This document shows, piece after piece, positions 33,990 to 64,000 of a stretch of DNA of 64,000 bases. Below the pieces are notes generated by a model that did not search any database, was not told the DNA's origin, and saw only the letters and a list, made by a program, of their open reading frames with translations. Positions within the stretch are counted from its first letter, which is position 1, and each line of letters opens with the position of its first letter. The translations under genes were made by a program, and so were the position numbers. This stretch comes from a virus: the IMG/VR virus record IMGVR_UViG_3300045988_183667, one strand, 5' to 3'.

Positions 33990-34026
33990 ACACCCGTGCA
34001 GGTAACTGCATGGGTGTTCTTGTGTT
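33990..34026 (+). terminator. rho-independent terminator
   Basis: 12-bp stem ACACCCGUGCAG/CUGCAUGGGUGU (one G-U pair), GTAA loop, then a T-rich tail. Confidence 0.55.
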
Positions 34027-34058
34027 ATGAGTCGCACACTCTTTTTTCAGAAAATATG

Positions 34059-34087
34059 TTGATAAATGAAAAGTTTTAGTGTATAAT
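34059..34087 (+). promoter_or_regulatory. promoter TTGATAAATGAA-17-TGTATAAT (family motif)
   Basis: -35 at 34059..34064, extended -10 at 34080..34087. Confidence 0.6.
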
Positions 34088-34164
34088 CATGTTTGAAATG
34101 TGATTGGCTCTTATATGAGAAAATCTGTATGTTTCAAATTATCAGTAAAGGAAGATGCAAATTT

Positions 34165-47735: not shown

Positions 47736-47907
47736 GATAATTCCGGCGGGAGTAACATCCTGCCGGATGTCTTAAAAATAAAATCTGGAAAATTTTAGTT
47801 TGTCCTATTGACAATGGTTTTCGGATTTTATATAATATACGAAGGTAGGTTGGCAAGTACATATTTATGTAGTAAAAATCTTTTTATCACAGAAAGGAGA
47901 AACAATT

Positions 47908-48246
47908 ATGTTTTCACTTCAGAATTTTGCGAACACCATGTCAGGTTGGTCTATCAATAACTTCCTGACAAACCTGAATAAGAACCTGAACCTGTGGGGT
48001 GGTCTTTTGATCGTAGTCGTTGGTCTGATAATGGTAATCGTTGCCGTTGTTAAGATCGCTAAGGGATTGATGAGTTCCGGACGTGGACAGACTAACTGGG
48101 TACTGAACATTGTACTGTTCTTCATCGGCGGTGCGCTGGCTTTCGGCGGTGGCTGGGGTCTTGTACAGGGTATTTCCCAGGGTGGTTCAGATACGCTGAA
48201 CGACTTAGGTAAGATCGCAATTCCTTTTATTGCACAGCTTTTCTAA
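47908..48246 (+). CDS. small 2-3 TM protein (pilin/VirB2-like or TcpD/E-like)
   Basis: 112 aa with Gly-rich hydrophobic helices; immediately follows the VirB6-like gene. Confidence 0.5.
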   Translation: MFSLQNFANTMSGWSINNFLTNLNKNLNLWGGLLIVVVGLIMVIVAVVKIAKGLMSSGRGQTNWVLNIVLFFIGGALAFGGGWGLVQGISQGGSDTLNDLGKIAIPFIAQLF

Positions 48247-48281
48247 TCTAGGCATGAGTAGGAATTAAACATGATCAGAAT

Positions 48282-48330
48282 AGTCCTCTGTTCTCTGACA
48301 AATAGCAGAGAAACAGAGGACTTTTTATTT
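48282..48330 (+). terminator. rho-independent terminator
   Basis: 16/17-bp stem AGTCCTCTGTTCTCTG / CAGAGAAACAGAGGACT, then TTTTTATTT. Confidence 0.8.
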
Positions 48331-48348
48331 GCTTTAATGACAAATATA

Positions 48349-48377
48349 TTGATAAATGAGTTAATTTGTGTTAATAT
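48349..48377 (+). promoter_or_regulatory. promoter TTGATAAATGAG-17-TGtTAATAT (family motif; near-identical to the 28979 copy)
   Basis: -35 at 48349..48354, -10 at 48372..48377. Confidence 0.6.
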
Positions 48378-48457
48378 TTAATATGGCAGTTGGACATGGC
48401 ATGATTTGTGCTATAATATGCCTAACAGAATATTTAACACAGAAAGGAACGAAAATC

Positions 48458-49864
48458 ATGGCGAGTGCAAAAGGAAAAGATGATATGGCTGCAAAAGCGA
48501 AGAGTGTAAGAGCAGCAAGATTTAAGCTTGGTCCACACAATACTATGGAACGCTTTTGTGCTACGTTTATTGCATTTGTTGTTTTGCTGGGACTTATTGT
48601 TACCAGCGCTGTTCATCAGAAAGTGGAAAACGGCAAAGTGACATTGACGGAGCAGGCTATTTACGGTACAGGTGAGACACAGTTCTCTCTGACACAGGAT
48701 GTTGTCAAGATTGATGGACTATGGACAAATGAGGGTCATACGAAAGCATTGATTTTAATCCATCTTCCCGGCGGTATGACAAATCTGTCAACACAGGCAG
48801 GAGATTATCAGATGTTCATGACCGGTGTAAATACGGATTTGAAATGTTCTCCTTCCGGTAGTATTTATGTATTCGGAAGTACAGGATATATTGGTCTGGG
48901 ATTTACGAATTCTTCCGGATTTGATCCGGCTGCATATAAGATTACACTGAGAAATATTTCTTATATGTCAGAAGGTGATGAAGAAGCTGCAAAGGCCGCT
49001 CATGACGGTAAGGAAGGTTCTTATATGTATCATAATGAGTTGAACATTGTTGCTAACTTTGCAGCAAGCGGAGCAAATACAGCAAAGTTCTATTCAAAGG
49101 CTGATTACACAGCAACAGATATTTACAACGAGCTTGTTCAGAGTAATCTGATTGCAGAAAAAGTGAGTGAGTGTGATGCTCTTGTAGCCGATATCAACAC
49201 GTCTATGAGAAAGGCAAATGAATATGCCCGTCGTCTGGAGACAGCAGGTATCACAATGGAAAGTAATTTGCCGGCTGAGATTTATGGTGATAGCATTTCT
49301 ATCACAGAATCAGATAGCATGCCGATTTATTTTGATTCTAATTATATGCTGTATGCTTCTTCCGGAAAGCTGGATTCTTCCAATGGCTGGTTTACCTGTC
49401 TGGACACTACAAAAGCAACAGATTTCCCGGAGGGAAGTAAGCTGTATTATAACACGAGTTATGTATTCCCTGGTGGTCTGAATTATAATTATCAGGATTT
49501 GACATCTGAGTCCGACCTGCTTTCCGAAGTAATTCCTGCGGGTATGACATATGTTCAGTTCATGGATTATCTGAATGAGCAGCAGACTACATACACTGTA
49601 AGCTCAACCGCAAAATTCGGTAACTATATTGACACGAGGAATGGTACAACTTTCTCGAAGGATCAGAGCAACACAGATCTTGTCGGTGACGATGCAAAGA
49701 CGAATATTGGAAACTATGAAGATGCAATATCCAATATCTTTTCAAAGAAGCGTGATCTGCAGATTACAAAGCTCCGTGATTTGCTTAAGATTTATTATTC
49801 ATCTTCATCCATTAACGATATGACATCTGTTTACATGGATAATGATGCTCTTGTAATGTATTAA
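48458..49864 (+). CDS. membrane-anchored T4SS-associated protein (N-terminal TM; possibly VirB8-like)
   Basis: Start placed at MASAKGKDD with an AAAGGAACGAAAATC RBS; TM helix FIAFVVLLGLIVTSAV. Confidence 0.5.
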   Translation: MASAKGKDDMAAKAKSVRAARFKLGPHNTMERFCATFIAFVVLLGLIVTSAVHQKVENGKVTLTEQAIYGTGETQFSLTQDVVKIDGLWTNEGHTKALILIHLPGGMTNLSTQAGDYQMFMTGVNTDLKCSPSGSIYVFGSTGYIGLGFTNSSGFDPAAYKITLRNISYMSEGDEEAAKAAHDGKEGSYMYHNELNIVANFAASGANTAKFYSKADYTATDIYNELVQSNLIAEKVSECDALVADINTSMRKANEYARRLETAGITMESNLPAEIYGDSISITESDSMPIYFDSNYMLYASSGKLDSSNGWFTCLDTTKATDFPEGSKLYYNTSYVFPGGLNYNYQDLTSESDLLSEVIPAGMTYVQFMDYLNEQQTTYTVSSTAKFGNYIDTRNGTTFSKDQSNTDLVGDDAKTNIGNYEDAISNIFSKKRDLQITKLRDLLKIYYSSSSINDMTSVYMDNDALVMY

Positions 49865-49882
49865 GTTTTAAGGAGGCATAGT

Positions 49883-52800
49883 ATGGCTAGTAAAGTAAAT
49901 CTGGATGATTTGCCATATGACGAATATCAGAAAGAGATGGCCAGGATCGAAGCTGAGGCTGCTGAGCAGGCAAAAAATGCCGAGCTCGGCAATCAGCCTA
50001 TGCCGGAAAATGACGAGCATAGCAGCTTTGACGATTTTGTTGGAAAACAGAAAAGTGCTGCTCTTGGTGAGGATGAGTCAGAAGGTGGTGAAAATAGTCC
50101 GTCTGATGATGTTGTAGGAGATCAGGCAGATGATCCCACAACGGGTGATAAAGAAGTTGTAACAGAAGAAAGCAATCCGGAAGCCTTTAGAGCCGGTCAG
50201 GAACTGGAAGAAAAAATGTCTGCGTTGAAGGGCGGAGCTGAGCGTAGTGTCAGTGGTGCTTTTCAGAATTTTCTTGGCGGTTTGAAAGGTCTTTTTGCCG
50301 GTGCATCTGCCGGTGCATTGCGAACTGTTATGAATATCGGAGAAAGAATGGGTATTCCAAAACCGGCTACATTTGGAATCTTGTTCATTCTCGGAGGTGG
50401 TACATTCGCTGGAATAGCAGGATTGTTAGGTAATAATAATGATTCATATAAATATGGTAGTGCATCTAGTGATTGCGAAGTGATGGAAGAAATGTATCGT
50501 GAAAACAGCATATATAAGGCACCAACGCAGGATCAATTAGATAGTAGTGCAGGTGCATTATTTAATGCCTTAAATTCAGATATGCACTTTAAATATGCTA
50601 TTCGTAATGGTGGTACAGGTGTTCTTGATGGTATTCAGGATGACATATTTGATGATGGGTATGAATATGATTACGTGCAGGATCCGGCAGACAGATATGA
50701 CTGGAATGGAGACGGTGTAATTGATGATGAAGATGATAGATCCCGTCACATTTCTGGTGGTTATCATGATTATGATAATATTGTGGAAAAGTTTCAGGAT
50801 GAACAGATTCTTGGAATGATTATGAATGCATCCGCAGAATCAAATATAAATCCGTCTACATATGAGATGAATTACCGTGTTGGACCAACTGAAGAATCAA
50901 ATGGAACATCAGATTATTATTTGAGTTTGCCTGATACCGTGAAGGATATGATTTTGTCACGTACACATCATGTACAATGGAATTCATATTGTGAAAGAAT
51001 GTTTGCTTTGTATGCAGCTGATGGAACATCAATCAATACATCTGCTTATCTATATACAGATCAATTTGGAAATACGAAGGATGCTTCTGGTAAACAGAAT
51101 TATTATCCGGGGGTTGGCTTATGGCAATGGACAGGCCAACGTGGTTACAATCTTCACTGGTTCTCAAATCAGTTGAAAGATAATACAGATGCAGACGGTG
51201 ATGGTGCAAATGATGCTATGTACAGTTTGAATGTGCAGATTGCTTATCTTGTTGAGATAGAAGCAAAACCTGTTACGGTGAATGGTGTTGATGTTCCAAT
51301 TAAAGATTGGGGTCATGAAGTTGTATCATCTTATCAGGTTGAGTATTACGTGAATGTGCCGTATAAGAATAGCATTGGTACTGACCCAGGTGGAATAGCT
51401 AACTGGATTCCTATGAATGACTATCAGGATCCAACTGATAGGAGCATGCGTGTTGCGTGGGATGCTTATGATCAGCTTCGTTCTCAGGCAAAATATAAAT
51501 ATGAATCACCATCGGGTGCCCGTTTGTCTGACAAGAACTACGATGATGCCCGTGATGCTGTTTATCTTTCTGATTCAGACAGATACAATGGAAATATCAC
51601 AGCTTTTGATGATGCTCCATTCCCGGTGAAAGATTATGTATATAATCGTAATGGAAGTATTTATAAAGAGGAAAAGCATAAATACGGTTCTGGCGAAGTA
51701 GAAGACGGAACGGAACAGTCAGATCAGGATGAAAACGGTGACGGTGTAGTTGATTCAAATGATACACGTACAGCGTATAAGACTGTTTACGGCTATGATA
51801 TAAATGATGACGGCGTCATTGATGAAGATGATCTTTTGATCGAAGATGGAAAACTGGCTGGTCATGAAGGTTTCGATGTTGACGGTGATGGAACAATTGA
51901 TGTCTGGGACATGAATGATAATGGTGAGATTGACGATGATGGTTCAGACTGGTATGTTGATCATGACGGATATAATGATGATGAATACAAAGACGGGATC
52001 TTCATTCCAAAGGAAGTATATTACCAGAATATCAGTATTATGGTTCTTGCATCTGCTGATGGTGATTATAACAGTAGTGAGTACATATATGAGAATGATT
52101 CTCATGCTCTTCGCCAGTACAATGATACAACGACTACAATTGATTATACGCATGAAAAAGCAAAAATTGTATACCAGTCACCCGGTATTACAGCAATTGA
52201 TGTGTGGGATGAAAAACCATGGGGTAACGGTACATACACGGTTGCAAACTTTTCAGAAGCCGGTGGTGTATCTGTAGATTATAAAGCCATACAGGAAGGC
52301 GATACGTGGTGGGATCAGTTGGAAGCTGCAAGAAAAGACCATACGAATTACGGAAAAGAAACAGATGATCCCCGTGATGCGTTTCGGTCTACAGCTGATA
52401 CATGGCGTGATGAAATTTGGATCTGGGCCAATGCTCATGCAAGAGCTGCCGTTGCCCGTAATAAGGGTCTGGAATTTGCTATTGGATGGGTTGGCTGTCC
52501 GGGCGGCATGCTGGAATCGCATACAATGTTTGTAACCGGTGGTTCATCATTTGCCGGAAGACTGGACACAACAGCATATAATAAAAAGGCTGATTGTCTG
52601 GAACATTACGCTGAGTGTATGTTAAAGATTGACTGGCACGGTAGCGATAAGCAGGGTAAGAGTATTACAGATCTTTTGTATGAAGATATGAATTCAAGAT
52701 CCGTTCGTAATACATGGGAGAGAGATAATTCTTATTGTGGCGGCGATTTTGACAATTCTTCTATCGCAGCATGTGCTGTCAGCTGGGCATGGTTAAAAGG

Positions 52801-53431
52801 ACATAACAGTGATGCAGATGTCAATCTGTCAGCGCTGGATCCAAGCGGATGTCCGAAGGCTTATCTGTGTACATCACTTTACTGTGCAGTGCATGATATT
52901 GTGTATCCGAATGATCCGTATTACTCGTCTTGTGACAGAGGCGCCGGCACGGCAGTAAGGGCTTCCGGTTCGGATGATGAATATCCACCAGGAAATCCAT
53001 ATCAGCAGTTTGACCACATGCGGTCAAGACCAACAGAATGGCAGGATTGCGGTCCGCTCGCAAGTGCGTGGAGTTCCATGGAACCGGGAGACATCATTGT
53101 TTCTACAGGTACAAGTTCAAGACATATCATCGTGTTTGTCGGACCGGATGCCGTATATGAGAAGTGGGGTAACTCCGTAGGAGATGCGACACACGCAATT
53201 GTGCATTCTTCACACTCTTCTGACCTGTCCAGTTCCAGAGGTCCGAGATGTGACCTTGACGGTTCTTATCTGCTCAGTGACAGTTCACACGGCTACCGTG
53301 TGTTCCGCTGTATGAATCAGGATACGAATAGTTCGACGCTGAAGTCTGCAGTAGATGCACAGTCAAGTTCTCTCGGTGGTCTTAACAATGGAGATGGTAA
53401 TGGTGGTGGTTACTATGCACCTCAGTATTGA
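49883..53431 (+). CDS. T4SS cell-wall hydrolase (lytic-transglycosylase-like + NlpC/P60-like) with Asp-rich Ca-binding-like repeats
   Basis: TM segment; GVGLWQWTGQRGYNLHWF...AMYSLNVQIAYLVEIE (lysozyme-like); DxDGDG loops (DVDGDGTIDVWDMNDNGEIDDDGSD); C-terminal PGDIIVSTG...HIIVFVG with Cys upstream. Confidence 0.55.
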   Translation: MASKVNLDDLPYDEYQKEMARIEAEAAEQAKNAELGNQPMPENDEHSSFDDFVGKQKSAALGEDESEGGENSPSDDVVGDQADDPTTGDKEVVTEESNPEAFRAGQELEEKMSALKGGAERSVSGAFQNFLGGLKGLFAGASAGALRTVMNIGERMGIPKPATFGILFILGGGTFAGIAGLLGNNNDSYKYGSASSDCEVMEEMYRENSIYKAPTQDQLDSSAGALFNALNSDMHFKYAIRNGGTGVLDGIQDDIFDDGYEYDYVQDPADRYDWNGDGVIDDEDDRSRHISGGYHDYDNIVEKFQDEQILGMIMNASAESNINPSTYEMNYRVGPTEESNGTSDYYLSLPDTVKDMILSRTHHVQWNSYCERMFALYAADGTSINTSAYLYTDQFGNTKDASGKQNYYPGVGLWQWTGQRGYNLHWFSNQLKDNTDADGDGANDAMYSLNVQIAYLVEIEAKPVTVNGVDVPIKDWGHEVVSSYQVEYYVNVPYKNSIGTDPGGIANWIPMNDYQDPTDRSMRVAWDAYDQLRSQAKYKYESPSGARLSDKNYDDARDAVYLSDSDRYNGNITAFDDAPFPVKDYVYNRNGSIYKEEKHKYGSGEVEDGTEQSDQDENGDGVVDSNDTRTAYKTVYGYDINDDGVIDEDDLLIEDGKLAGHEGFDVDGDGTIDVWDMNDNGEIDDDGSDWYVDHDGYNDDEYKDGIFIPKEVYYQNISIMVLASADGDYNSSEYIYENDSHALRQYNDTTTTIDYTHEKAKIVYQSPGITAIDVWDEKPWGNGTYTVANFSEAGGVSVDYKAIQEGDTWWDQLEAARKDHTNYGKETDDPRDAFRSTADTWRDEIWIWANAHARAAVARNKGLEFAIGWVGCPGGMLESHTMFVTGGSSFAGRLDTTAYNKKADCLEHYAECMLKIDWHGSDKQGKSITDLLYEDMNSRSVRNTWERDNSYCGGDFDNSSIAACAVSWAWLKGHNSDADVNLSALDPSGCPKAYLCTSLYCAVHDIVYPNDPYYSSCDRGAGTAVRASGSDDEYPPGNPYQQFDHMRSRPTEWQDCGPLASAWSSMEPGDIIVSTGTSSRHIIVFVGPDAVYEKWGNSVGDATHAIVHSSHSSDLSSSRGPRCDLDGSYLLSDSSHGYRVFRCMNQDTNSSTLKSAVDAQSSSLGGLNNGDGNGGGYYAPQY

Positions 53432-53504
53432 TCTGCTGTAAGAAGTGCCACGGGTGCATGAATTGTGTATCCGTGGTATTATTTTGTATAGAGAGGTGGT
53501 AAAG

Positions 53505-54356
53505 ATGCAAAGATCCTATAATCTGAAATCAAAGCCGGAAAAGAAAAATAAGGATAATAAGATTGTGTATTTCTGTGTGATTGTCACTCTTGCAGTGATT
53601 TTCATCACATATATGTATTGCAGCACAGTAAAACCGTCGGAATCTGTTTCTGAGGAAACAGAAGAGACAGAAGCTGTTGCAGAGATTGTCATGGACACGG
53701 AAGTGTCAGCAGAAGAAAGAGAGTCTGCAATCGGATCCATGGCAATGGCCGGTAATACGCTTGCTGACAAACAGAACGCACTGATTGCAGAAAATGACAA
53801 GTATCTTGTTACGATGAAAAATGCAGCTACTTCCGGTTATTATGATAAGATTTTGATGACTGATAAATATAAGAAGCTTATTGAAGATTTTAACAAAAAG
53901 TACATGAAAAAGAACCCTTCCGGTGCGTCCGGCGTTTTATGGTCAACATGCGGTGTCTGGGAGTTTCAGGCAAATTATGATTTTTCCTCTGATTTATATA
54001 AGTCTATGCCGGCTGTATGGCTGTGCTACGGTAAGGATGATACGGATAAGGTCCATCCATACGCTGTTGTAACAGCAACGTATATTACAGCATCGGATTC
54101 CTTTGAGAACCCGGTTCTTCATAAAACAGAATGGTATCCATCTGATTCCAGTATTGCTGACAAAGATGCGATCATAGCAAACGGTATGCCGAATGACGTG
54201 ACGGTATCGGCTGATCAGTGTGGGGATGATTCTGCGGCGAATGGCAGCAATGATGACGGTGATATGACGGAAGAACAGAAGAAAGTCCGTGATGAATTAC
54301 AGAAGCTCATAGATGCCAACAAAGCGAAGGAAAATGCAGTTTCAATTTCTCATTAA
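53505..54356 (+). CDS. N-terminally anchored protein, paralog A (W-x-G-x-WEF ... VTATY domain)
   Basis: Start placed at MQRSYN (GAGAGGTGGTAAAG RBS); shares WSTCGVWEFQANYDFS...AVWLCYGKDDTDKVHPYAVVTATY with the next gene. Confidence 0.5.
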   Translation: MQRSYNLKSKPEKKNKDNKIVYFCVIVTLAVIFITYMYCSTVKPSESVSEETEETEAVAEIVMDTEVSAEERESAIGSMAMAGNTLADKQNALIAENDKYLVTMKNAATSGYYDKILMTDKYKKLIEDFNKKYMKKNPSGASGVLWSTCGVWEFQANYDFSSDLYKSMPAVWLCYGKDDTDKVHPYAVVTATYITASDSFENPVLHKTEWYPSDSSIADKDAIIANGMPNDVTVSADQCGDDSAANGSNDDGDMTEEQKKVRDELQKLIDANKAKENAVSISH

Positions 54357-54362
54357 AATCGG

Positions 54363-54391
54363 TTGATAAATGAGAGTTTTAGTGTTATAAT
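54363..54391 (+). promoter_or_regulatory. promoter TTGATAAATGAG-17-TGTTATAAT (family motif)
   Basis: -35 at 54363..54368, -10 at 54386..54391. Confidence 0.6.
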
Positions 54392-54443
54392 ATATTCGAT
54401 TTGAAAAACGATAAAATACATAACAGAAAGGAAATATGCAGAT

Positions 54444-55895
54444 ATGGCAAGAAGTTATGATGGAACGCGTTCTGCTTCCGCCCGTGAAGAGGTAGAACGT
54501 GACAAGCAACAGCAGGCTGCCATGCATGTACGCATCGAACGTGGTGTAGTCATCGGTGCAATCGTGGTGGCCGGTCTGGCTGTTGTTCTTAATACAGGAC
54601 GTTGTATCAGTTATGCCGGTTCTACCGGTGAGTACAGAACACAGCAGGCAGAAGCCGAAACCACGCTGGCAGAGCTTCAGGATAAGCTGCAGGATCCGTC
54701 TTCACAGAATTATGTGTATAAAGATCCTACGGTTGGAAACATGAAGGATACCGGACAGGCAATCGCCACATTACAGAACCAGATCATTTCAGCACAGCAG
54801 CTTCGGAATAATCAGTCAACACAGGCGCAGACTGTTCCGGGAAACAACACGGTGTCTGATTTCGGGGATCATTCATCTTCCGGTACACAGACAGGTGGTG
54901 CTGTGACACTGGATCCGACAGATCTGGCTCCTTCAGGAACCACAGCGCCGGATACGGAGACAGTGGAGCAGGATGCTGCAACGATTCCCGAGACAACGGA
55001 ATCATCCGGCAGCAGTTATGAATATACACCAATTACGGATTTCAACAGTATCGGCACGGTGGACAATTCTCAGACGACTTCCGGAAACACAGTGGATAAC
55101 AGTTCTTCGATGGCGTTAAACGCTGTTTCAGAATCGACAGGACGTGATCTGGCACAGTTGATGACCGAGTTCAAACAAAAGTATTACGCACAGGTTGTCA
55201 ATAATGTTGACGGCAATGATGTTGCCTGGTCATGGTACGGTTACTGGGAGTTCGCCGGAACGTATGATTATTCTGTGAATGAAACACCTACGATGAAAGC
55301 TGTGTGGATCTGTTATGAGCCATCTGATACTGCACATGTGAAGCCTCTTGGTTTTGTGACAGCAACGTATACGGAAGCTACAAAGAAGTTCACGAACATG
55401 ACGGCAACTTATACACAGGCTTATACAAAGAAGGCTGAGGGTCAGGCTAATAATTTTGGACAGACCTTTAACAATAATAATCAGGCATCGGGTTCTTCTT
55501 CTACAATGACGACAGGTTCTAATCAGGGAACATTGTCACCGGATATGCCGGGACAGAACGGACAGGGTTCTGAAAATGAATATAAGCCGAATATCGTAGA
55601 AGATGATGCAGATAACATCTCTATTGAACCTGATACATCAAATAACACAAATGCCGGTAATAGCAGTGGCAATACAAATTCGACGTCCGGTTCTTCTACA
55701 ACGAATACGACACCTGCAAATAATCCGTCTGGATCAGCTACGTGGAATCCCGGCAGTGATACAGGAACAACGAGTGGAACACCTGCCGGAACATGGAATC
55801 CGAATGGCAGTACAGGAACCACCGGTTCATGGAATCCAAACGGCACGACACCTGCCGGAAGCAGCAATTCCGGTTCGTGGACACCTGCAAATTAA
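54444..55895 (+). CDS. N-terminally anchored protein, paralog B, with Ser/Thr/Asn-rich tail
   Basis: WSWYGYWEFAGTYDYS...AVWICYEPSDTAHVKPLGFVTATY; tail repeats GTWNPNGSTGTTGSWNPNGTT. Confidence 0.5.
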   Translation: MARSYDGTRSASAREEVERDKQQQAAMHVRIERGVVIGAIVVAGLAVVLNTGRCISYAGSTGEYRTQQAEAETTLAELQDKLQDPSSQNYVYKDPTVGNMKDTGQAIATLQNQIISAQQLRNNQSTQAQTVPGNNTVSDFGDHSSSGTQTGGAVTLDPTDLAPSGTTAPDTETVEQDAATIPETTESSGSSYEYTPITDFNSIGTVDNSQTTSGNTVDNSSSMALNAVSESTGRDLAQLMTEFKQKYYAQVVNNVDGNDVAWSWYGYWEFAGTYDYSVNETPTMKAVWICYEPSDTAHVKPLGFVTATYTEATKKFTNMTATYTQAYTKKAEGQANNFGQTFNNNNQASGSSSTMTTGSNQGTLSPDMPGQNGQGSENEYKPNIVEDDADNISIEPDTSNNTNAGNSSGNTNSTSGSSTTNTTPANNPSGSATWNPGSDTGTTSGTPAGTWNPNGSTGTTGSWNPNGTTPAGSSNSGSWTPAN

Positions 55896-55913
55896 GTAAA
55901 GGAGAATGAGATT

Positions 55914-56624
55914 ATGCTTGAAATACTTGATTTCTTACAGGAGCATAAAAAGGCTGTGATTGCTGTTGCAATTATGATTTTATGCATCCTTATCAGCGGT
56001 GGCATTGCAAAGTCGTTTGCAAAGTCCAATGCCTCGGCAGCAGATTCCCTGTCCACGGTGAATAATAAGATTTCCAACGTGCAGGATCAGCTGAACCAGC
56101 CGCAGACAAAATGGAAAGAATTAGATCACGGGTATCATCAGTCCCGTGTGAACAGGGACATGGATATTCTGATCGGTTCCGGTACAGGAAACGGCAACAC
56201 GAATGAATGGCTTTCCAGATTCCTTACCTGGAATAGCGGCGATGAGTATAAAGAGAATCATCAGTGGTTCGTGGAAAAGCTCGGTTCCAATAACGTGTTC
56301 TGTACGACGATTATGAGACCGTATGACAAAGAGATCTCTCTTTCAGATTCCGGTGCCGTAAATGATCCGAACAATATTCAGTGTGCTCTTGATGTGCAGC
56401 AGACAAAGGCGAATGTCTATGTCAATTCCATCAATGAGAGCAACGATACTTACAATTATGTTATTTTTGCATATTTTAATGCAAAAGCCGCAAGAGCAAA
56501 TCAGTCATTTGATGCCATGGACAAGGTACAGTGTTATATCGTAACCGTTTCAGTAGACGCTGACGGAAATGTGTTACCTAACACGTTTATTGTATCTGCC
56601 GGACCGACATCAACGATTGATTAA
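55914..56624 (+). CDS. N-terminally anchored hypothetical protein (236 aa)
   Basis: TM helix AVIAVAIMILCILISGGIA; RBS AAAGGAGAATGAG. Confidence 0.5.
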   Translation: MLEILDFLQEHKKAVIAVAIMILCILISGGIAKSFAKSNASAADSLSTVNNKISNVQDQLNQPQTKWKELDHGYHQSRVNRDMDILIGSGTGNGNTNEWLSRFLTWNSGDEYKENHQWFVEKLGSNNVFCTTIMRPYDKEISLSDSGAVNDPNNIQCALDVQQTKANVYVNSINESNDTYNYVIFAYFNAKAARANQSFDAMDKVQCYIVTVSVDADGNVLPNTFIVSAGPTSTID

Positions 56625-56654
56625 ATAAATCAGATACAGAAAGGAACATCTATC

Positions 56655-57044
56655 ATGGGAACATTCAAGGACACATTCAAGAAAGAAATGGCTGTTCAGA
56701 AAGCTGCAAAGGAGCAGGCAAAGGCAGAAAAGAAGAAAGAACGTGAAAGCAAGGGACCTCTCGCTGTAAGGATCCTTGCAAATACGAAAAACATCGGTAT
56801 CTGCGGTCTTTATACAATTGCTTATATGCTGGTAGTTTACTGCATCGTGCTTTTTATCACAATGTATCTTCCATCCCTGCTTAATGTCATCGTATCCTAC
56901 TTTGATGCATCCACGTCTATCGTGCTTACGGTAGAATGTGCATGCCTGTTTTTCACCGCATGGATTTTCGTAATCTCTTTCGTGATTATCAAGAAGATCA
57001 CGAAGGTTTACACCGGCGGCATCAAAGCATTATTCAGTAAATAA
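56655..57044 (+). CDS. small polytopic membrane protein
   Basis: Lys-rich N-terminus followed by 3 hydrophobic helices. Confidence 0.5.
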   Translation: MGTFKDTFKKEMAVQKAAKEQAKAEKKKERESKGPLAVRILANTKNIGICGLYTIAYMLVVYCIVLFITMYLPSLLNVIVSYFDASTSIVLTVECACLFFTAWIFVISFVIIKKITKVYTGGIKALFSK

Positions 57045-57052
57045 GTTTTGGC

Positions 57053-57106
57053 ACACCATTATACCTTATGGCAGGACTGCTGTGGTGTTATGGTGTGTTA
57101 TTTTTG
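57053..57106 (+). terminator. probable terminator
   Basis: CACACCAT ... ATGGTGTG inverted repeat, then TTATTTTTG. Confidence 0.4.
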
Positions 57107-57138
57107 TGAGAAATTCCAATAAAAAGCCATTATGTCTA

Positions 57139-57167
57139 TTGATAAATGAGACAAAATGTGGTATTCT
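57139..57167 (+). promoter_or_regulatory. promoter TTGATAAATGAG-17-TGgTATTCT (family motif)
   Basis: -35 at 57139..57144, -10 at 57162..57167; ~100-nt leader. Confidence 0.5.
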
Positions 57168-57270
57168 TTGTATTGGGTATTTTAGCACACATAATCATGT
57201 AACGCATTAACAATACATATATGGCGGTGTGACATATCCGTCAGAAAAAAGTTGAAAGGAGTTTCAGCAT

Positions 57271-58542
57271 ATGCATACAGTTACCGTGTATAATACTGAT
57301 TCAATCAAAGCCAGAGACATTCTCTCCCAGGTTTCAAATGATGATGTTTTAACCGAGATGGTGGAATGTGTCGGCAAAGTGTACATCGAGCAGTGCTTTT
57401 TTAACATGGAGCGCCGTTTTGATGGTGGTCTTGGCAATCTGGAGTTGAAGATCCTCGGCACTGTGAAAGAACTGTTTATTGAAGATTACGATGACAGACA
57501 GTTCCCTTGCAGCACCAAGAACATCAATTTCACAGATGCAGAACCTGTTATGATCAACATGCAGCTTACGGCAAAGGAGAAGGGTCACCTGTTTGAGTGT
57601 GGTGTAGATCATCCTGGATTCGAGCCGCCTGCAAACATGAAGTACAATGTCATGGAGATTCCGATGCTCATTGAGTACAAGGGTATCTATGAATCGCCGG
57701 TATGTTTCGCAAGAATTATCCGTCCGAATGAGATTCAGACGAGTACAAAGAAATGCGGCTATTATGGTCTGTTTGATCTGGTTGCAAAGCATCCGGATGT
57801 TGTCCGTGAAGAGGAGAATGGCGGTATCGACATCAATCTTAACAAGACATCACCTGAGATCCGTATGGCTGCCCCTGTAAAGACCATGCTGAATGAGAAG
57901 AGTTCTGAAGTGAACAAGACACTGGCTGCCGCCGCAAAAGAGGAGCCTGTCGATAAGAGCGTGGCTGCTGTCCGTGAGACAATCACAGAGCGTATGGTAA
58001 CGAAGCCTGTAAATCCTAAGGCTTCTGAGACGACTGTGAAGATTTATGAGAAGTCTGTAGAGGAATATACAGAGAAATCCAATGTCAAGGATGCAACGAA
58101 TGTATCTGACATTGATTCCGGTGAAACACCTCAGAATACAGACAATGTGATTCCTTACACTGTGCGTCAGATGGATTCTGCACTCTATGGTATGCTTTCC
58201 CAGAATGTCAGCAAGCATGCTGAAAAGATTGAGCAGGCCCGTAAGGATGGTAAGAATATCCCGTTCAACGCAAGTCTGGATGAAGACGGTCATGTTTATG
58301 ACGGCATGACTGGTGAATTCGGTGATGAGGATAAGTCCCTGTCAAAGGCAGAGCGTGAGAAGAGACGTCAGATCAATCTGGCAAGAAGAGCCGACATCGC
58401 AGCTGACAATAAGGCTCTGAATGAGGACGCAAGTGCGGATATTTCCGGTCAGGGTGCTTCCGTTAAGAAGACATCTGCTCAGGAGCTGTTAAGCGGCATC
58501 ATGAGTACTCCGAAGAGTTCTTCCGGTCAGCAGTATCTTTAA
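57271..58542 (+). CDS. hypothetical protein (423 aa) immediately upstream of relaxase (possible relaxosome accessory)
   Basis: Complete ORF ending 21 nt before the relaxase start. Confidence 0.55.
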   Translation: MHTVTVYNTDSIKARDILSQVSNDDVLTEMVECVGKVYIEQCFFNMERRFDGGLGNLELKILGTVKELFIEDYDDRQFPCSTKNINFTDAEPVMINMQLTAKEKGHLFECGVDHPGFEPPANMKYNVMEIPMLIEYKGIYESPVCFARIIRPNEIQTSTKKCGYYGLFDLVAKHPDVVREEENGGIDINLNKTSPEIRMAAPVKTMLNEKSSEVNKTLAAAAKEEPVDKSVAAVRETITERMVTKPVNPKASETTVKIYEKSVEEYTEKSNVKDATNVSDIDSGETPQNTDNVIPYTVRQMDSALYGMLSQNVSKHAEKIEQARKDGKNIPFNASLDEDGHVYDGMTGEFGDEDKSLSKAEREKRRQINLARRADIAADNKALNEDASADISGQGASVKKTSAQELLSGIMSTPKSSSGQQYL

Positions 58543-58563
58543 GATGTAAACGAGGTGTGATGT

Positions 58564-60702
58564 ATGGGTTTGAAACAGTCAATAGTTGTAAAAAATGAAT
58601 TTTCATGCAGGACAGCTACTGGCGGGACGAGAGGCGGATCGTTAGACAATTATGTTCTTGATTATATGAGCCGTAATGGCGGTGCCACGGAGATACTCAC
58701 ACCTGTGAAGCTGGACGATAATCAGAATTATATTCTGAATTATATGCTTCGTGATGAAGCAACCGAGTCTGCGGATTCCGTTTCCGGTTTAAAACAGGAT
58801 TTCCGGGATCTGCAGGGTCTTGGCGGAAGGGCGTTCGGATATGGTGAAGTTTCACTGTCTGACAAAAGGCTCCGTGAAGCGGCAAAGGATGTGCAGAAGA
58901 ATTTCAAGGCAGGAAAGACAATCTTAAAGACCGTTATTTCTTTTACGGATGATTATCTGAAAAAGACCGGTATTGTCCGTTCGGATTTCGAGTGCAGTCT
59001 TCCCGGTGATTATCGTGGAAACATTGACCAGCTGAAGTTACGCATGGCAATTATGAATGGTCTTTCCAAAGTGGCGAGAGGCTATGATGACTTGCAGTAT
59101 GTTGGTGTGATACAGGTAGATACGGAGCACGTACACTGCCATCTTGCCATGTTTGACAAAGGTGAAGGAACACGGATGCCGGACGGAACACAGCGCGGCA
59201 AGCTCACGGACCGCATGATGCGGGATTTGCGCCGGGGTGTGGACACTTATCTGGATGAGAAACAGACAGTTAAGATGATGGCCTCTTCTGTCAATTATGA
59301 CAAGCAGAACACGGTCGGATATATCAAGCGTTTTACACATGAAACGATGAACAACAGGGGACTTGCACAATTCATGATCGCCTGTCTCCCGGAAGACCGG
59401 TCGCTCTGGCGTGCCGGTTCCAATGCGTCAGAAATGCGTAAGGCAAATGGTATTGTCCGTGAGTATGTAGAACAGGTGCTTTCCCAGCCGGATTCCGGTT
59501 TTGAGGATGCCATGAAGGCTGTAAGGAAATATGCCGGTTACAGACGTAACCGTGAAGACCTGACAGGACAGTATTATCGTGAGCTCATAAGTTCCAAACA
59601 GAATGAGATTATTACGGATAGTATGAATGCCGTGTATGCTGTGTTGAAACAGATACCGGAAGATGGCTTACAGACACAGACGCCGCTTATGGATGTCATG
59701 AGCCTGCCATACGAGGACGCAGCAGATGTAATAGGAACTGCAATCAGTGAGCCGGATACGGTGGCTGAATTTGGTTTCCGTCTGCGTTCCTACAAGTCAA
59801 GGCTGGATCATCATGCTGCTGAATTTCAGAAGTATCATGCAAACCGTATTGCTTACGAGGAACAGAGGTCTGATCCTGACGAAAGAAGGCGTCCTGTACC
59901 AGAATCTGCGGCTGTGTATGAGTTTTACCTTGTGGAAGAACAGTACAATGAAATGCTGATGAACAAATACCAGTATTTTCTGGATTTTATCCCGCCGGAA
60001 GAAACATATCGTAAAGATCTGGACGAACTGACAAATTATGCGAGACAGATCACAGCATGGCAGCGTATGATAGATGATGCCGATATGCGCCGGATGTCGG
60101 TTGACACGGCAGAACAGTATGGAAAACGGGTGCATAATCTCTCAGACGGGCATCTGATGGTTGTAAACCCAGAGGCGCTGTCCGACAGGGTAAGTGATAT
60201 GAGAAAGCACTATGCCGGTATGCGTGAGGTGTATAGTGCGAAGCTCGCAGCCCTTGGTTTTGAACTGACAGAAGATGACACGTTACAGCGTGGCAGGAAA
60301 TATGATTTTGATGCTGTGAAGGCATTGGATCTGCATCATATGATGTATGATTTCCCTTATGATTTTGCAATTCCGCAGGATCAGTCCCGTTCTTTTGTAG
60401 GAATGGCAGATAAAAGGCTTGCCGCATTCGAGAAGGCAGCCGCTTATCTGAAGGCATCCGGACAGGAAGACATGATAAAAAATCTGTCAGGCTCCGACAT
60501 CCAGTCGCAGCATATTCTGGCTGACAGGTTCCGCAGGACAGATGCCGGTTTTACCACGGCTCGTGAAGAGGCTCTTACAAAAAGACGCCAGTCACGTACC
60601 ATTCGTCTGGATTATGATTTTTATGTTCATCAGGAAGAGGATTTGAAAGAAGATATTAAATCCATTGTAAAAAATACAGTTTCGACCTTGCAATATGAGT
60701 AA
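58564..60702 (+). CDS. MobA/MobL-family (MOBQ-like) conjugative relaxase
   Basis: N-terminal TATGGTRGGSLDNYVLDYMSRNGG (compare the RSF1010 MobA Tyr motif); H-x-H-x-H metal site DTEHVHCHL. Confidence 0.7.
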   Translation: MGLKQSIVVKNEFSCRTATGGTRGGSLDNYVLDYMSRNGGATEILTPVKLDDNQNYILNYMLRDEATESADSVSGLKQDFRDLQGLGGRAFGYGEVSLSDKRLREAAKDVQKNFKAGKTILKTVISFTDDYLKKTGIVRSDFECSLPGDYRGNIDQLKLRMAIMNGLSKVARGYDDLQYVGVIQVDTEHVHCHLAMFDKGEGTRMPDGTQRGKLTDRMMRDLRRGVDTYLDEKQTVKMMASSVNYDKQNTVGYIKRFTHETMNNRGLAQFMIACLPEDRSLWRAGSNASEMRKANGIVREYVEQVLSQPDSGFEDAMKAVRKYAGYRRNREDLTGQYYRELISSKQNEIITDSMNAVYAVLKQIPEDGLQTQTPLMDVMSLPYEDAADVIGTAISEPDTVAEFGFRLRSYKSRLDHHAAEFQKYHANRIAYEEQRSDPDERRRPVPESAAVYEFYLVEEQYNEMLMNKYQYFLDFIPPEETYRKDLDELTNYARQITAWQRMIDDADMRRMSVDTAEQYGKRVHNLSDGHLMVVNPEALSDRVSDMRKHYAGMREVYSAKLAALGFELTEDDTLQRGRKYDFDAVKALDLHHMMYDFPYDFAIPQDQSRSFVGMADKRLAAFEKAAAYLKASGQEDMIKNLSGSDIQSQHILADRFRRTDAGFTTAREEALTKRRQSRTIRLDYDFYVHQEEDLKEDIKSIVKNTVSTLQYE

Positions 60703-60731
60703 TTATGGTGTATAATTTGCTCATAAATGAG
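60688..60731 (+). promoter_or_regulatory. promoter TTGCAA-17-TATAAT with palindrome CTCATAAATGAG at about +1
   Basis: -35 at 60688..60693, -10 at 60711..60716, palindrome 60720..60731 (same 3-nt spacing after the -10 as at 15389). Confidence 0.55.
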
Positions 60732-60761
60732 TATATTTAGTTCAAGAAAGGACATGCACAT

Positions 60762-61685
60762 ATGGAAAACAGAGATAACTATTCACGAAATCAGTGCACA
60801 CTGGTGATCAGAGTTGACGGTGAGGAACTGGAAGTTCCATGCAACTTTGGTCTTTCTGCGGAAGAGATTAAGGTAATTTATCCGTACCTTGCAAATTTGG
60901 CGAATACGCAGATCGTAAATCCTGCTATTGAGTTCGCCAAGAAGTCAAAATCCGGTGCATATGATGCTCTTACAGAGGAAGAGTATGCAGAGCTGGTAGA
61001 TCAGATTCATAAGCAGTCCAGCTACTGGTATTCCAAGTCCAAGGCAAGTTTGCTTGACCTTGCGATTCGTTTTGCTTTGGACATTAAATTCAAGGGTATC
61101 CAGGAGATTCAGGACGCATTTTCAACGGTAACGCCTTTTGACCGTATCAAGACAGAAAAGACTGTTTCCAGCGAAGAAGCTACACAGATTTTAAAGGACG
61201 CCGGTATGGGTGCTGATGCGGAGACAAAGGCTGATACCGATGATGAAAAGGACGTGGAGATGGGTTCTGCCGGAAGTGTTTCTGTAGATATTTATGGAAC
61301 AGGTGATGCCGGTGACTTCTTATCCAAAGAACTGGACGACATGAATGCTGCAAACGCAGAAGACCGTTTCCAGAAGATCGTGGACGGCGAGAGACCGGAT
61401 CTCCCGGAGAGATACCAGTCAAATTACAAGCCAGAAGGGTTTCAGGATGGACAGATCGGCGAGGACGGTCTGTTAGATCTGTATGCAACTAACGGTTCTG
61501 CAGATGCCATTTTTGGTGACAAGCCGGATGACGGTTCCACTTCCGCAGAAATTTTTGCAGAAGATGAGGAAGCATCTGATGAAGATGCAGAACAGGAAGA
61601 AATTCCTGCTGACGAGGATGGCCCGGATGAAGATTTTGAGCCCGATTTCTCGGACGAAGATGAATTATGTGAGTCGGAGGACTGA
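60762..61685 (+). CDS. hypothetical protein with highly acidic C-terminal tail
   Basis: Complete ORF; C-terminus DEDAEQEEIPADEDGPDEDFEPDFSDEDE. Confidence 0.55.
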   Translation: MENRDNYSRNQCTLVIRVDGEELEVPCNFGLSAEEIKVIYPYLANLANTQIVNPAIEFAKKSKSGAYDALTEEEYAELVDQIHKQSSYWYSKSKASLLDLAIRFALDIKFKGIQEIQDAFSTVTPFDRIKTEKTVSSEEATQILKDAGMGADAETKADTDDEKDVEMGSAGSVSVDIYGTGDAGDFLSKELDDMNAANAEDRFQKIVDGERPDLPERYQSNYKPEGFQDGQIGEDGLLDLYATNGSADAIFGDKPDDGSTSAEIFAEDEEASDEDAEQEEIPADEDGPDEDFEPDFSDEDELCESED

Positions 61686-61690
61686 TGTAG

Positions 61691-64000
61691 ATGATTTTCA
61701 GAGAAGATGATCCAAAAGCAAAGCAGTATCCGCATATGGCTTTGTATACGGATTTTTTAAAGCCGATGGAGCGTCCGCTTCTCGGCCGTGAAAAAGAAAT
61801 GAGACAACTCATGGCAGCCATGGCAAGACCGGAGTTAAGTAATGTTATCCTGCTGGCAGAGGCTGGTACAGGTAAGGCAAACAGCGTTGATACGATTTTG
61901 CCGGTTGCAGACGAGAGAGGATATATCCGTCTCGGTGATGTCAAAGTCGGAGACAAAGTGTTTAACGAAGATGGTTATCCTGTAGATGTCATCGGTGTGT
62001 TCCCGCAGGGAATGCTTCATGCGTATGAAGTCATATTTGCAGACGGTACATCTGTTGTATGCAATGATGAGCATTTGTGGGCTGCAAGAACATGCAAACA
62101 GCATCATGACGATAAGCCTTACGGCGTACATACACTACGTGACATGATGGATTACGACATCGTAAAATCAAAGAAGCGTTCCGGCAGAAAAGACATGAAT
62201 ATCAAGTCATGGTATGTGCCATGCAACAAAGCTGTAAAGCGTCCGGACGTGGATCTTCCGGTTGCACCGTATGTTATGGGTGCTCTGATCGGTGATGGAT
62301 GCCTTACAGGAAAGAAAGCATTTGAGTTTTCTTCCGATGATGAGCCTGTTGTAGCAAGAGTTGCAGAGGGACTTGGTGCTGTTGGTTATGAGAAATCAAG
62401 CTATAATTATTCATGGCGTTTTGTAGCACCGGATGGATCAGAAGGTCGTTCAGACAAGATTTATATGTCATGTCGTGATGTGGCTGCAAAATTGTCAAAT
62501 GATGATGCAGCATTTGGAAAGAAGAGCATCGAACGCCGTATTCCGGGAATGTATATGCTTGGTTCTGAGAGTCAGCGTATGGAACTTCTCAGGGGTCTCA
62601 TGGATACAGACGGAACAGTAACAGGTTCTGATGGACGTGTGAACGCTTCTTTCAGTACAAATTCTTCTGATTTGGCAAAAGATGTACAGAAACTTGCAAA
62701 TTCGCTTGGATATCGCACAACGCTGCGCCAGGAGAAACGTAACAAGAAACGCAAGAATGCTGAGTATTCCGTTTATTTTATTGTAGAAGACGAAGAGACA
62801 ATGAATCTGTTCTCTTTGTCAAGACATATTAAATGGATTGAGAAACATATGCGTCATAATAAGAAATTCCATAAGATTTATGACGATATGGCAATCGCAG
62901 AAGTAAGGGATCTTCACAGGGATGAAGAAATGCTCTGCATCTATGTGGACAGTCCTGCGCATCTGTTCCAGATCACAGAGAACCACATTGTGACACATAA
63001 CACAGCTCTGGTTCAGGGAACCATGGCAAAGGATACAGACAGGGCATATCTGGAAGTAAACCTTCCGAAGATGATCGCAGATCAGAAAAATGAAAATGAG
63101 ATTGCCAATAAGTTAAAGAGCTTATTCAGAGAAGTCGAGAACTTCCATAATGACGAGGGAAAAGAGATCGTTCTTTTCATTGATGAGTTCCATCAGATCG
63201 TCCAGCTGTCATCCGCAGCCGTGGAAGTGTTAAAACCTCTGTTGGCAGATTCCGGTACCCGTGGTATCCGTGTTATTGCAGCGACTACATACATTGAGTA
63301 TCAGGCAAATATTGCAGCAAACCTGCCTCTGGTAGAGCGTTTGCAGAGAATCAATCTGCCGCAGCCTAGCAAGGATGTTGTGGTTTCCATTCTTAAGAAT
63401 TATGCAGAGCGTTACGGTGTTGGTGATCAGTTCGTCGGCAACAATATGCTTGAAATGATTTACGAGTATACGAACAGATATATCCCTGCCAATGCGCAGC
63501 CGAGAAAGTCAATCTTGATGCTGGATTCCATGATCGGATGGCACAGGGTAGACCATTGTCCAATTGATATGAGGCTGCTCTCAGATGTTATCTACGAGAC
63601 AGAGGGTATCAACATTGCGTTCCGTGTAGATGCAACGAGTATCAAATCGCAGCTTGACAAGGTGGTCATTGCGCAGCAGTTTGCATCCTCAGCTATTGAG
63701 TCGAGACTCCAGATTTGCTGTGCGGATTTGAATAACAAGAATAAGCCGATGAGCTCCTTCCTCTTTACTGGCAGTACAGGCACAGGCAAGACAGAAATGT
63801 CTAAACAGCTTGCAAATATCTTGTTTCAAGACGAAAGAGCTCTTGTCCGTATGGATATGACGGAGTATGCTCTTCCCGAGTCTCTGGAGCGTTTCAGATT
63901 AGAGCTGACACAGGCAGTATGGACGAGACCTTACTGTATCATTCTTCTGGATGAGATTGAAAAAGCCTGTGCTCCTGTAACAAGAATCCTTCTGCAGGTG
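61691..64000 (+). CDS. ClpB/ClpA-like double-AAA+ ATPase (no N-domain), interrupted by an intein; 3' end beyond window
   Basis: D1: LLGREKEMRQL...AEAGTGK, IVLFIDEFHQ, LKPLLADSGTRGIRVIAATT. D2: FLFTGSTGTGKTEMSKQLA, CIILLDEIEKA...ILLQV (compare ClpB [21 protein letters not shown]). The ORF is not in the track because there is no stop inside the window. Confidence 0.8.
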   Translation, partial: MIFREDDPKAKQYPHMALYTDFLKPMERPLLGREKEMRQLMAAMARPELSNVILLAEAGTGKANSVDTILPVADERGYIRLGDVKVGDKVFNEDGYPVDVIGVFPQGMLHAYEVIFADGTSVVCNDEHLWAARTCKQHHDDKPYGVHTLRDMMDYDIVKSKKRSGRKDMNIKSWYVPCNKAVKRPDVDLPVAPYVMGALIGDGCLTGKKAFEFSSDDEPVVARVAEGLGAVGYEKSSYNYSWRFVAPDGSEGRSDKIYMSCRDVAAKLSNDDAAFGKKSIERRIPGMYMLGSESQRMELLRGLMDTDGTVTGSDGRVNASFSTNSSDLAKDVQKLANSLGYRTTLRQEKRNKKRKNAEYSVYFIVEDEETMNLFSLSRHIKWIEKHMRHNKKFHKIYDDMAIAEVRDLHRDEEMLCIYVDSPAHLFQITENHIVTHNTALVQGTMAKDTDRAYLEVNLPKMIADQKNENEIANKLKSLFREVENFHNDEGKEIVLFIDEFHQIVQLSSAAVEVLKPLLADSGTRGIRVIAATTYIEYQANIAANLPLVERLQRINLPQPSKDVVVSILKNYAERYGVGDQFVGNNMLEMIYEYTNRYIPANAQPRKSILMLDSMIGWHRVDHCPIDMRLLSDVIYETEGINIAFRVDATSIKSQLDKVVIAQQFASSAIESRLQICCADLNNKNKPMSSFLFTGSTGTGKTEMSKQLANILFQDERALVRMDMTEYALPESLERFRLELTQAVWTRPYCIILLDEIEKACAPVTRILLQV
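61877..63001 (+). other. intein (~375 aa) with LAGLIDADG homing-endonuclease domain inserted in the D1 P-loop
   Basis: Block A (A)NSVDTILPV; block B NDEHLW; LAGLIDADG motifs YVMGALIGDGCL and LLRGLMDTDGTV; block G IVTHN, then Thr at +1. Removing it gives GTGK|TALVQG, which matches ClpB GVGKTAIVEG. Confidence 0.7.

Follow-up and report, generated by a model that had tools for sequence, protein, structure and literature searches.

This study examined a 64,000-nucleotide (nt) stretch of viral DNA, IMG/VR record IMGVR_UViG_3300045988_183667 (the whole stretch is referred to here as the window), which ends within a gene encoding a Clp/Hsp100-like AAA+ ATPase. The first of the two AAA+ modules of this protein (D1) has its ATP-binding P-loop, or Walker A motif, split by an insertion that very probably is a class 3 intein with a LAGLIDADG endonuclease. 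Class 3 inteins, which were defined in 2010 (PMC2807308), have no nucleophile at residue 1 and carry a Trp-Cys-Thr triplet (WCT) at position 12 of block B (B12), position 4 of block F (F4) and position 5 of block G (G5), usually with Thr or Ser, rarely Cys, at position +1 (Tori et al. 2010, PMC2807308; PMC5050341). The initial annotation, made from the sequence alone, had described the Ala start of this intein as unusual; the Ala start is correct, but with Trp68, Cys354, Thr373 and Thr+1 in place it is not an oddity, and the Ala1/Thr+1 pair is, on these motifs, the expected class 3 signature. The finding explains the apparent anomaly through an established mechanism, and nothing known about inteins or Clp ATPases is overturned.

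Boundaries, fold and splicing class of the insertion

The insertion lies in frame between the Lys and the Thr of the D1 Walker A motif (AEAGTGK|TALVQG) and is exactly 375 amino acids (aa) long, in agreement with the insertion of about 375 aa after GTGK reported earlier. The upstream part of the host protein (N-extein) ends in LLAEAGTGK, the insertion then begins with ANSVDTILPVADERGY, and after its end at ...ENHIVTHN the host sequence is picked up at 63002 as TALVQGTMAKD. Homologues found in a database with the whole translation as query fall into three length classes (~600, ~970 and ~1340 aa). In P0073 and P0084 the D1 P-loop is continuous and reads AEAGTGKTALVQGTM. In a further group of about 80 homologues, ~600 aa long and as much as 91% identical to the spliced extein, neither P-loop carries an intein; this group, with P0121-P0130 in it, and P0073 and P0084 all have GTGK|TALVQG. 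In the DNA of empty alleles the Lys codon abuts the Thr codon, as in the related contig L004 (...GGCAAA|ACAGCT..., with the empty D1 site ATCTTGCTGGCGGAAGCTGGTACGGGCAAA|ACAGCTCTGGTTCAGGGTACTATG), and in the window 1125 nt separate AAG (Lys) from ACA (Thr). Because the empty alleles join Lys directly to Thr, the intein runs from Ala1 to Asn375 with Thr at +1, and the GTGK|T junction that the initial annotation had preferred holds at both the protein and the DNA level. Its alternative, a class 1 intein starting at the Ser that is indeed present two residues into the insertion (Ser3) and leaving Ala-Asn in the spliced P-loop, would predict the junction peptide GTGKANTALVQG. This reading is ruled out for all practical purposes by the intein-free alleles, which read GTGK-TALVQG without AN, and by the lack of conservation at residue 3, where homologous inteins have P, A, S, E or D; moreover, the product GTGKAN-T would ruin the GK[T/S] of Walker A.

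The features of the intein, and the second insertion site that is discussed further below, are as follows:

61877-63001, plus strand: intein, 375 aa, Ala1 to Asn375, HINT domain with LAGLIDADG endonuclease (empty-site alleles, Pfam, PDB, AlphaFold2 (AF2) and Foldseek)
ANSVDTILPVAD, plus strand: block A (translation)
62060-62089, plus strand: block B, CNDEHLWAAR, with His66 at 62072-62074 (B10) and Trp68 at 62078-62080 (B12, the W of WCT)
62192-62881, plus strand: endonuclease domain, about intein residues 106-335, limits approximate (LAGLIDADG_3, Hom_end, Foldseek)
62270-62302, plus strand: block C, first LAGLIDADG motif, YVMGALIGDGC, with Asp140 (translation)
62585-62620, plus strand: block E, second LAGLIDADG motif, LLRGLMDTDGTV, with Asp245 (translation)
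62924-62974, plus strand: block F, EEMLCIYVDSPAHLFQI, with Cys354 at 62936-62938 (F4), the predicted initiating nucleophile and the C of WCT
62981-63004, plus strand: block G, NHIVTHN and Thr+1, with Thr373 at 62993-62995 (G5, the T of WCT), His374, Asn375 at 62999-63001 and Thr+1 at 63002-63004
63790/63791, plus strand: empty second intein site in the Walker A motif of the second AAA+ module (D2), GSTGTGK|TEMSK, occupied in the relative P0001/L003

The splicing blocks A, B, F and G are all present in the insertion, which closes with a C-terminal His-Asn followed by a nucleophile at +1 (...VTHN|T). Each of the blocks named in the initial annotation (A, B, C, E and G) was found, together with block F, which it had omitted. 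The middle of the insertion matches the Pfam models LAGLIDADG_3 (E 6e-15) and Hom_end (E 8e-7). With phmmer against the PDB, the N- and C-terminal parts are covered by matches to the gp41-1 intein (E 6e-10 for 6riz, which is WCT-engineered, and 8e-8 for 6qaz), the MchDnaB1 intein (E 3e-8 and 1e-7) and Msm DnaBi1 (E 1.5e-7), and the middle by a match to PI-SceI. An AF2 model of the 375-aa intein, based on 47 homologues, reached a mean predicted local distance difference test score (pLDDT) of 92.7 and a predicted template modelling score (pTM) of 0.92. Its top Foldseek match in the PDB was PI-SceI over the full length (E 1.9e-18, template modelling (TM) score 0.64), followed by TliVMA, PhoVMA, PI-PfuI, the free LAGLIDADG enzymes I-DmoI and I-Tsp061I, and mini-inteins; the class 3 inteins 6riy and 6bs8 were also among the matches. 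Both LAGLIDADG motifs keep their acidic residue (Asp140 and Asp245), and the pseudo-dimeric double-motif fold matches PI-SceI, PI-PfuI and I-DmoI. The motifs, the matches and the model identify the insertion as an intein that combines a HINT splicing domain with a LAGLIDADG homing endonuclease of the double-motif type; splicing and DNA cleavage are predicted for it. The LAGLIDADG_3 match, the PDB matches and the empty alleles together bear out the earlier proposal that such an intein splits the D1 Walker A motif. When the window was searched with a profile for additional inteins, the one in D1 was the only match.

The residues expected of a class 3 intein are found at each of the diagnostic positions: the window intein reads Ala1, CNDEH66LW68, MLC354IYVD, VT373HN and Thr+1, giving the full WCT triplet (Trp68, Cys354 and Thr373) with a residue 1 other than Cys, Ser or Thr. 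The phmmer alignment with MchDnaB1 (6rix) places His66 and Trp68 on His65 and Trp67, and Cys354 and Thr373 on Cys124 and Thr143; it is these four MchDnaB1 residues that the structural paper names as the catalytic triad and the WCT Trp (PMC7664689). Conservation was assessed across 155 inteins from homologues of the ATPase, 106 at the D1 site and 49 at the D2 site. Cys354, His66 and His374-Asn375 are each kept in 155/155, Trp68 in 152/155 and Thr373 in 147/155. Residue 1 varies among the 106 D1 inteins (A 84, G 15, C 4, S 3) and takes nine forms among the 49 D2 inteins (S, A, G, R, M, C, L, Q and E). An invariant internal Cys combined with a variable residue 1 is what a reaction initiated by Cys354, and not by residue 1, would be expected to leave.

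A class 2 (KlbA-like) mechanism, in which no thioester forms at block F and the N-terminal junction is attacked by the +1 residue itself, appears highly improbable given the same residues. KlbA inteins generally have Cys at +1. They share Ala1 with the window intein (PMC2807308), and only biochemistry could tell the two mechanisms apart. However, class 2 is defined by the absence of WCT (PMC2807308), which is complete here; the block F Cys is invariant, not only in the 155 relatives but also in all 125 more distant P-loop relatives; and Thr+1, which the window intein has, goes together with WCT in class 3 (PMC2807308).

Several points weigh against the reading as an active class 3 intein in a complete gene. 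The similarity to Hint or LAGLIDADG domains that the initial annotation had proposed to look for was found with Pfam LAGLIDADG_3, the PDB inteins (6e-10) and the Foldseek match to PI-SceI, but the Hint-specific Pfam models are weak, the best being Hom_end_hint at E 0.012, and therefore the HINT assignment rests on the PDB sequence matches and the predicted fold. The class 3 mechanism would be borrowed from inteins, MchDnaB1 and Msm DnaBi1, that are only 24-29% identical to the window intein across the splicing domain. Grafting WCT onto the class 1 intein gp41-1 was insufficient for splicing (Beyer et al., PMC7664689), and so the WCT motif alone is no proof of activity. Finally, the gene is cut by the window end, and this copy is presumed complete from P0004, a 99%-identical full-length relative of 973 aa that extends another 203 aa past that point.

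Judging by homology to experimentally studied class 3 inteins, splicing by the window intein would proceed in four steps. Cys354, placed together with His66 and Trp68, would attack the Lys(-1) carbonyl to form a thioester branched intermediate; the N-extein would then be transferred to Thr+1; cyclisation of Asn375, helped by His374, would free the intein; and an O-to-N shift would rebuild the peptide bond to give the canonical P-loop GTGKTALVQG. Before splicing, D1 should neither bind nor hydrolyse ATP. The endonuclease would be expected to cut intein-free alleles at the same site, resulting in homing when elements share a cell, and conjugation could supply the encounters between elements that homing needs. 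The sequence data establish the exact boundaries, the domain composition, the class 3 signature, the presence/absence polymorphism and purifying selection; splicing itself, the order of its chemical steps, cleavage by the endonuclease and an involvement of the ATPase in transfer are inferred.

In Msm DnaBi1, splicing is reversibly blocked when the equivalent Cys is oxidised (PMC6195587). Since splicing depends on a free internal catalytic cysteine, the class 3 P-loop inteins of this ATPase (at D1 in the window, at D2 in relatives) and the one in the coupling protein of a relative could conceivably be conditional switches and not purely selfish, although we consider this unlikely. If true, exposure of a strictly anaerobic Lachnospiraceae host to oxygen or redox stress would keep the ATPase, and with it conjugation, in an inactive precursor state until reducing conditions return.

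Selection, decay and mobility within the ATPase family

The window gene was compared with its closest relative contig, L003 (98.6% nt identity in the intein), and with a locus from a Lachnospiraceae metagenome-assembled genome (L001). The ratio of nonsynonymous to synonymous substitution rates (dN/dS) was 0.05-0.06 for the whole intein, 0-0.06 for its endonuclease part and 0.03 for the exteins, D1 included, and these low values indicate purifying selection on what would be a functional element. Efficient splicing is argued for because the D1 P-loop needs splicing to work, and both D1 and the splicing residues are strongly constrained. These data also bear on the possibility that the insertion is decayed and non-splicing, so that the D1 ring is permanently inactive or the gene a pseudogene in which only D2, or nothing, functions. 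Endonuclease decay is seen in some relatives, which carry mini-inteins of 146-147 aa or intermediates of 250-266 aa, and about one in four D1 inteins has another residue in place of a LAGLIDADG Asp. In the window, however, the frame is intact across 770 codons, no splicing residue and neither LAGLIDADG Asp is missing, dN/dS of the splicing and endonuclease parts spans 0.02-0.06 beside the low value for the exteins, and the D1 Walker A and B residues are conserved alike in intein-bearing and intein-free alleles. A decayed insertion is therefore very unlikely, and an active class 3 intein remains the preferred reading.

The initial annotation considered an intein in a Clp/Hsp100 ATPase on a conjugative element to be uncommon, which does not hold within this ATPase family: at least 106 clusters have a D1 intein and at least about 70 have an intein in D2. 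Among close alleles, all four D1/D2 occupancy states exist (occupied/empty, empty/occupied, empty/empty and occupied/occupied). The relative P0001/L003, 97% identical at the amino acid level, carries a 364-aa class 3 intein (ACDDFTEIPV...CCVHN|T; L003 6603-7694) exactly at the D2 site that is empty in the window. Nucleotide mismatches between the window and L003 are concentrated from ~160 nt upstream to ~50 nt downstream of this site, which looks like a co-conversion tract. The synonymous divergence (dS) of the D1 intein between the same two sequences (window 61691-64000 and L003 4503-8516) is 0.056 vs 0.186 for the flanking exteins, approximately three-fold lower; either sharing of the intein is more recent than that of the exteins, or conversion near the D2 site has raised the divergence of the exteins.

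The D1 and D2 inteins are paralogous, with a mean identity of 33% and a maximum of 47%. The nearest neighbour of every intein is a same-site intein, and the D2 inteins form one clade (49/49) in a neighbour-joining tree, which suggests one ancient switch of an intein between the two P-loops of the same protein. The mini-inteins and intermediates at the D1 site were found in homologues P0101, P0107, P0059 and P0063; along with the loss of Asp they are stages of endonuclease decay, and are possibly useful as compact class 3 inteins. Combined with the four occupancy states, the family displays the stages of the homing cycle. With paralogous inteins at both Walker A Lys/Thr junctions, the mini-inteins and an intein in a coupling protein (described below), it amounts to a natural experiment and is convenient for studying conjugation-spread homing in gut anaerobes.

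Relation to known inteins

The junction between Lys and Thr of the P-loop is a classic intein insertion site (PMC5050341; PMC4760082). When 1.84 billion cluster representatives were searched exhaustively with the window intein, a threshold of E<=1e-3 gave 16,169 proteins and one of E<=1e-30 gave 1,095. The best 150 of those proteins gave 157 full-length intein matches, of which 125 lie right after a GxxGK motif. All 125 have the block F Cys, 113 the full WCT, 113 no residue-1 nucleophile and 118 Thr+1; their hosts include other AAA+ proteins, VirB11/T2SSE ATPases, RecD2, a ResIII helicase and PhoH. One homologue had been labelled 'ClpA/intein/homing endonuclease' by the automatic annotation of the Joint Genome Institute (JGI). 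A literature search found no paper on inteins in ClpB, ClpA or Clp ATPases, in this ATPase family, or in Lachnospiraceae conjugative elements. From these matches, the window intein belongs to a very large and already recognised kind, and what it adds is a new host rather than a new kind. The Clp/Hsp100-like ATPase of Gram-positive MobL-type conjugative elements would thereby join the list of class 3 intein hosts, and protein engineering could draw on the family for new class 3 inteins, both full-length and mini.

The closest counterparts in splicing chemistry are MchDnaB1 (6rix/6riy) and Msm DnaBi1 (6bs8), which are likewise class 3 inteins with Ala1 and WCT that interrupt a hexameric ATPase immediately behind its Walker A Lys. 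The N-extein of MchDnaB1 ends in SVGK, and the amplification primer of Msm DnaBi1, translated here, reads GK|ALALD. Their His and Trp are numbered 65 and 67 against 66 and 68 in the window intein, and W, C, T and HN match position by position. Both differ in being mini-inteins without an endonuclease and in their host, the DnaB replicative helicase of Actinobacteria, and Msm DnaBi1 has Ser+1 where the window intein has Thr+1. The class 3 prototype, the DnaB intein of mycobacteriophage Bethlehem, is full-length with an endonuclease, has Thr+1, WCT residues Trp67/Cys320/Thr339 and a C-terminal His-Asn, and resides on a mobile element (PMC2807308). It differs by Pro1 and by its phage helicase host, and is likened here by its published description, not by sequence alignment.

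The best structural match, PI-SceI of the Saccharomyces cerevisiae VMA1 protein, likewise consists of a HINT domain into which a double-motif LAGLIDADG endonuclease is inserted, but is a eukaryotic class 1 intein of 454 aa and is 16-18% identical to the window intein. PI-SceI has Cys1 and Cys+1 and is not known to have WCT. Among PDB sequences, gp41-1 (6qaz; engineered WCT form 6riz) is closest to the N-terminal splicing half; it shares the C-x-x-E-H-L-[F/W] pattern in block B and the THN C-terminus, and differs in being class 1 (Cys1, Phe at B12 and Asp at F4), naturally split and without an endonuclease. By phmmer, the N-terminal splicing half of the window intein (61877-62100) is as similar to the class 1 gp41-1 as to the class 3 DnaB inteins. 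The origin of class 3 is debated between divergence and convergence, and Beyer et al. 2020 argue for convergence (PMC7664689). Natural class 3 relatives of gp41-1 bear on this argument and could show the compensatory changes that were missing from the failed WCT conversion.

A WCT-type intein is also found in the IcmO protein of Burkholderia vietnamiensis, a coupling-type ATPase of type IV secretion and conjugation (PMC2807308). This intein, likened by description and not by sequence, differs in Cys+1 and in its host protein and phylum. Likewise, the TraG/VirD4-type coupling protein of the related contig L006 (gene from 13417 to the locus end) contains a class-3-type intein at ~16980-18080 with Ala1 and a LAGLIDADG domain (AQPLTSHIATP...CNEHLW...VQCISVAD...IPTHN|TSN). 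Its insertion point reads KIVQGN|TSNIVFLK, and the 83-88% identical orthologue in L004 (12273-17066) is without it.

The host ATPase and its conjugative element

The host gene is preceded by a Shine-Dalgarno-like sequence and stays open to the end of the window:

61691, plus strand: ATG start of the ATPase open reading frame (ORF), open through 64000 (770 codons) with no stop before the window end
61676-61680, plus strand: Shine-Dalgarno-like GGAGG, 10 nt upstream of the start codon (direct sequence reading)
61691-61876, plus strand: N-extein, aa 1-62 (translation, ClpB D1 alignment, AAA_16 match)
61856-61876, plus strand: first half of the D1 Walker A motif, AEAGTGK, at the end of the N-extein (translation)
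63002-64000, plus strand: C-extein, precursor aa 438-770, the rest of D1 and then D2, cut by the window end
63170-63193, plus strand: D1 Walker B motif, VLFIDEFH, within the C-extein
63770-63793, plus strand: D2 Walker A motif, GSTGTGKT, within the C-extein
63938-63964, plus strand: D2 Walker B motif, IILLDEIEK, within the C-extein

The spliced extein has 598 aa and contains two AAA+ modules with Walker A and B motifs and a D2-small domain (AAA at 53-177 for D1, AAA_2 at 310-473 for D2 and ClpB_D2-small at 481-555). It aligns with Thermus thermophilus ClpB (1qvr; E 2e-57) over ClpB residues 170-389 and 551-834, with the restored P-loop GTGKTALVQG paired with GVGKTAIVEG, in support of the earlier description of a Clp/Hsp100-like ATPase with D1 and D2. 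In the raw translation, Pfam and NCBIfam place AAA_2/AAA in the C-terminal part and ClpA, ClpB and ClpV models at E 1e-41 to 5e-48; the NCBIfam ClpB and ClpA models (TIGR03346/TIGR02639) scored 164 and 162 bits against cut-offs of 993 and 1232 for this query, which is cut at the window end and interrupted by the intein. The spliced extein has no Clp_N match. The coiled-coil middle domain, which in ClpB is located at residues 390-550, was not found, as the ClpB alignment passes over exactly these residues.

Because there is no match to Clp_N or the middle domain, the extein is only 598 aa long, and the NCBIfam scores lie far under their cut-offs, the host is, by its domain content, a minimal Clp/Hsp100-like double-ring AAA+ ATPase and not a ClpB orthologue; of the 'ClpB-like' label in the initial annotation, the Clp-like two-ring organisation stands, whereas ClpB orthology does not. 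Its two AAA+ modules with Walker A and B and the ClpB_D2-small domain are held in common with the Hsp100 class I unfoldases ClpB, ClpA and ClpC, from which it differs in its size, in the missing Clp_N match and in the location of its gene, which lies in a conjugative transfer module and not in a stress regulon. PADLOC, run on the spliced ATPase and the two proteins next to it, reported generic AAA+ similarities only, and therefore an assignment to a defence system was not possible. Tentatively, the gene context would suit an ATPase that remodels or unfolds either the relaxosome or the substrates of transfer.

Two genes lie directly upstream of the ATPase:

58564-60702: MobL relaxase (E 1e-51)
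60762-61685: 307-aa protein between MobL and the ATPase, with a strongly acidic, low-complexity C-terminal half, syntenic in L003, L004 and L006

The 307-aa acidic protein has no Pfam or PADLOC match, and a Pfam scan of this protein and of the 733-aa downstream protein gave nothing meaningful. The gene order in three related contigs is MobL, a ~310-aa protein, the ATPase, a ~750-aa protein and a TraG/VirD4-type coupling protein. The MobL gene upstream and the coupling-protein synteny in relatives support the earlier view that the window is a conjugative element, with the ATPase gene in its transfer module. The closest genome match is a metagenome-assembled genome of an uncultured Lachnospiraceae; by these comparisons, the host of the intein is a Lachnospiraceae (gut-bacterial) element with a MobL relaxase and, in relatives, a type IV coupling protein. 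Megablast of window positions 44000-64000 against PLSDB plasmids and INPHARED phages returned no match, and there is therefore no annotated close relative in these sets. The conjugative megaplasmid 'Hodor' was considered as the identity of the element and rejected, as it has a MOBH relaxase and not MobL, with no mention of an intein or Clp protein.

Directly upstream of MobL, L003 encodes an IS605-family OrfB/TnpB protein (Cas12f1-like_TNB; 109-1215), in the place of which the window has a 423-aa ORF (57271-58542). Elsewhere, the window encodes a ParM/ALP-like actin, a UvrD-like helicase, a TopA-like topoisomerase and an adhesin with T-Q ester bonds accompanied by a sortase. Four large co-directional ORFs (630, 1297, 498 and 1182 aa; 41953-47735 and 48368-53431) occupy the middle of the transfer region, three without a Pfam match and the fourth with only a borderline phage-tail-lysozyme match; they may be unrecognised type IV secretion components, e.g., VirB4-, VirB6- or hydrolase-like. 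The adhesin is a 1559-aa surface protein with seven T-Q ester-bond domains (PF18202, E 4e-133), followed by the sortase (29261-35136), and is likely a covalently stabilised adhesin of the conjugative element.

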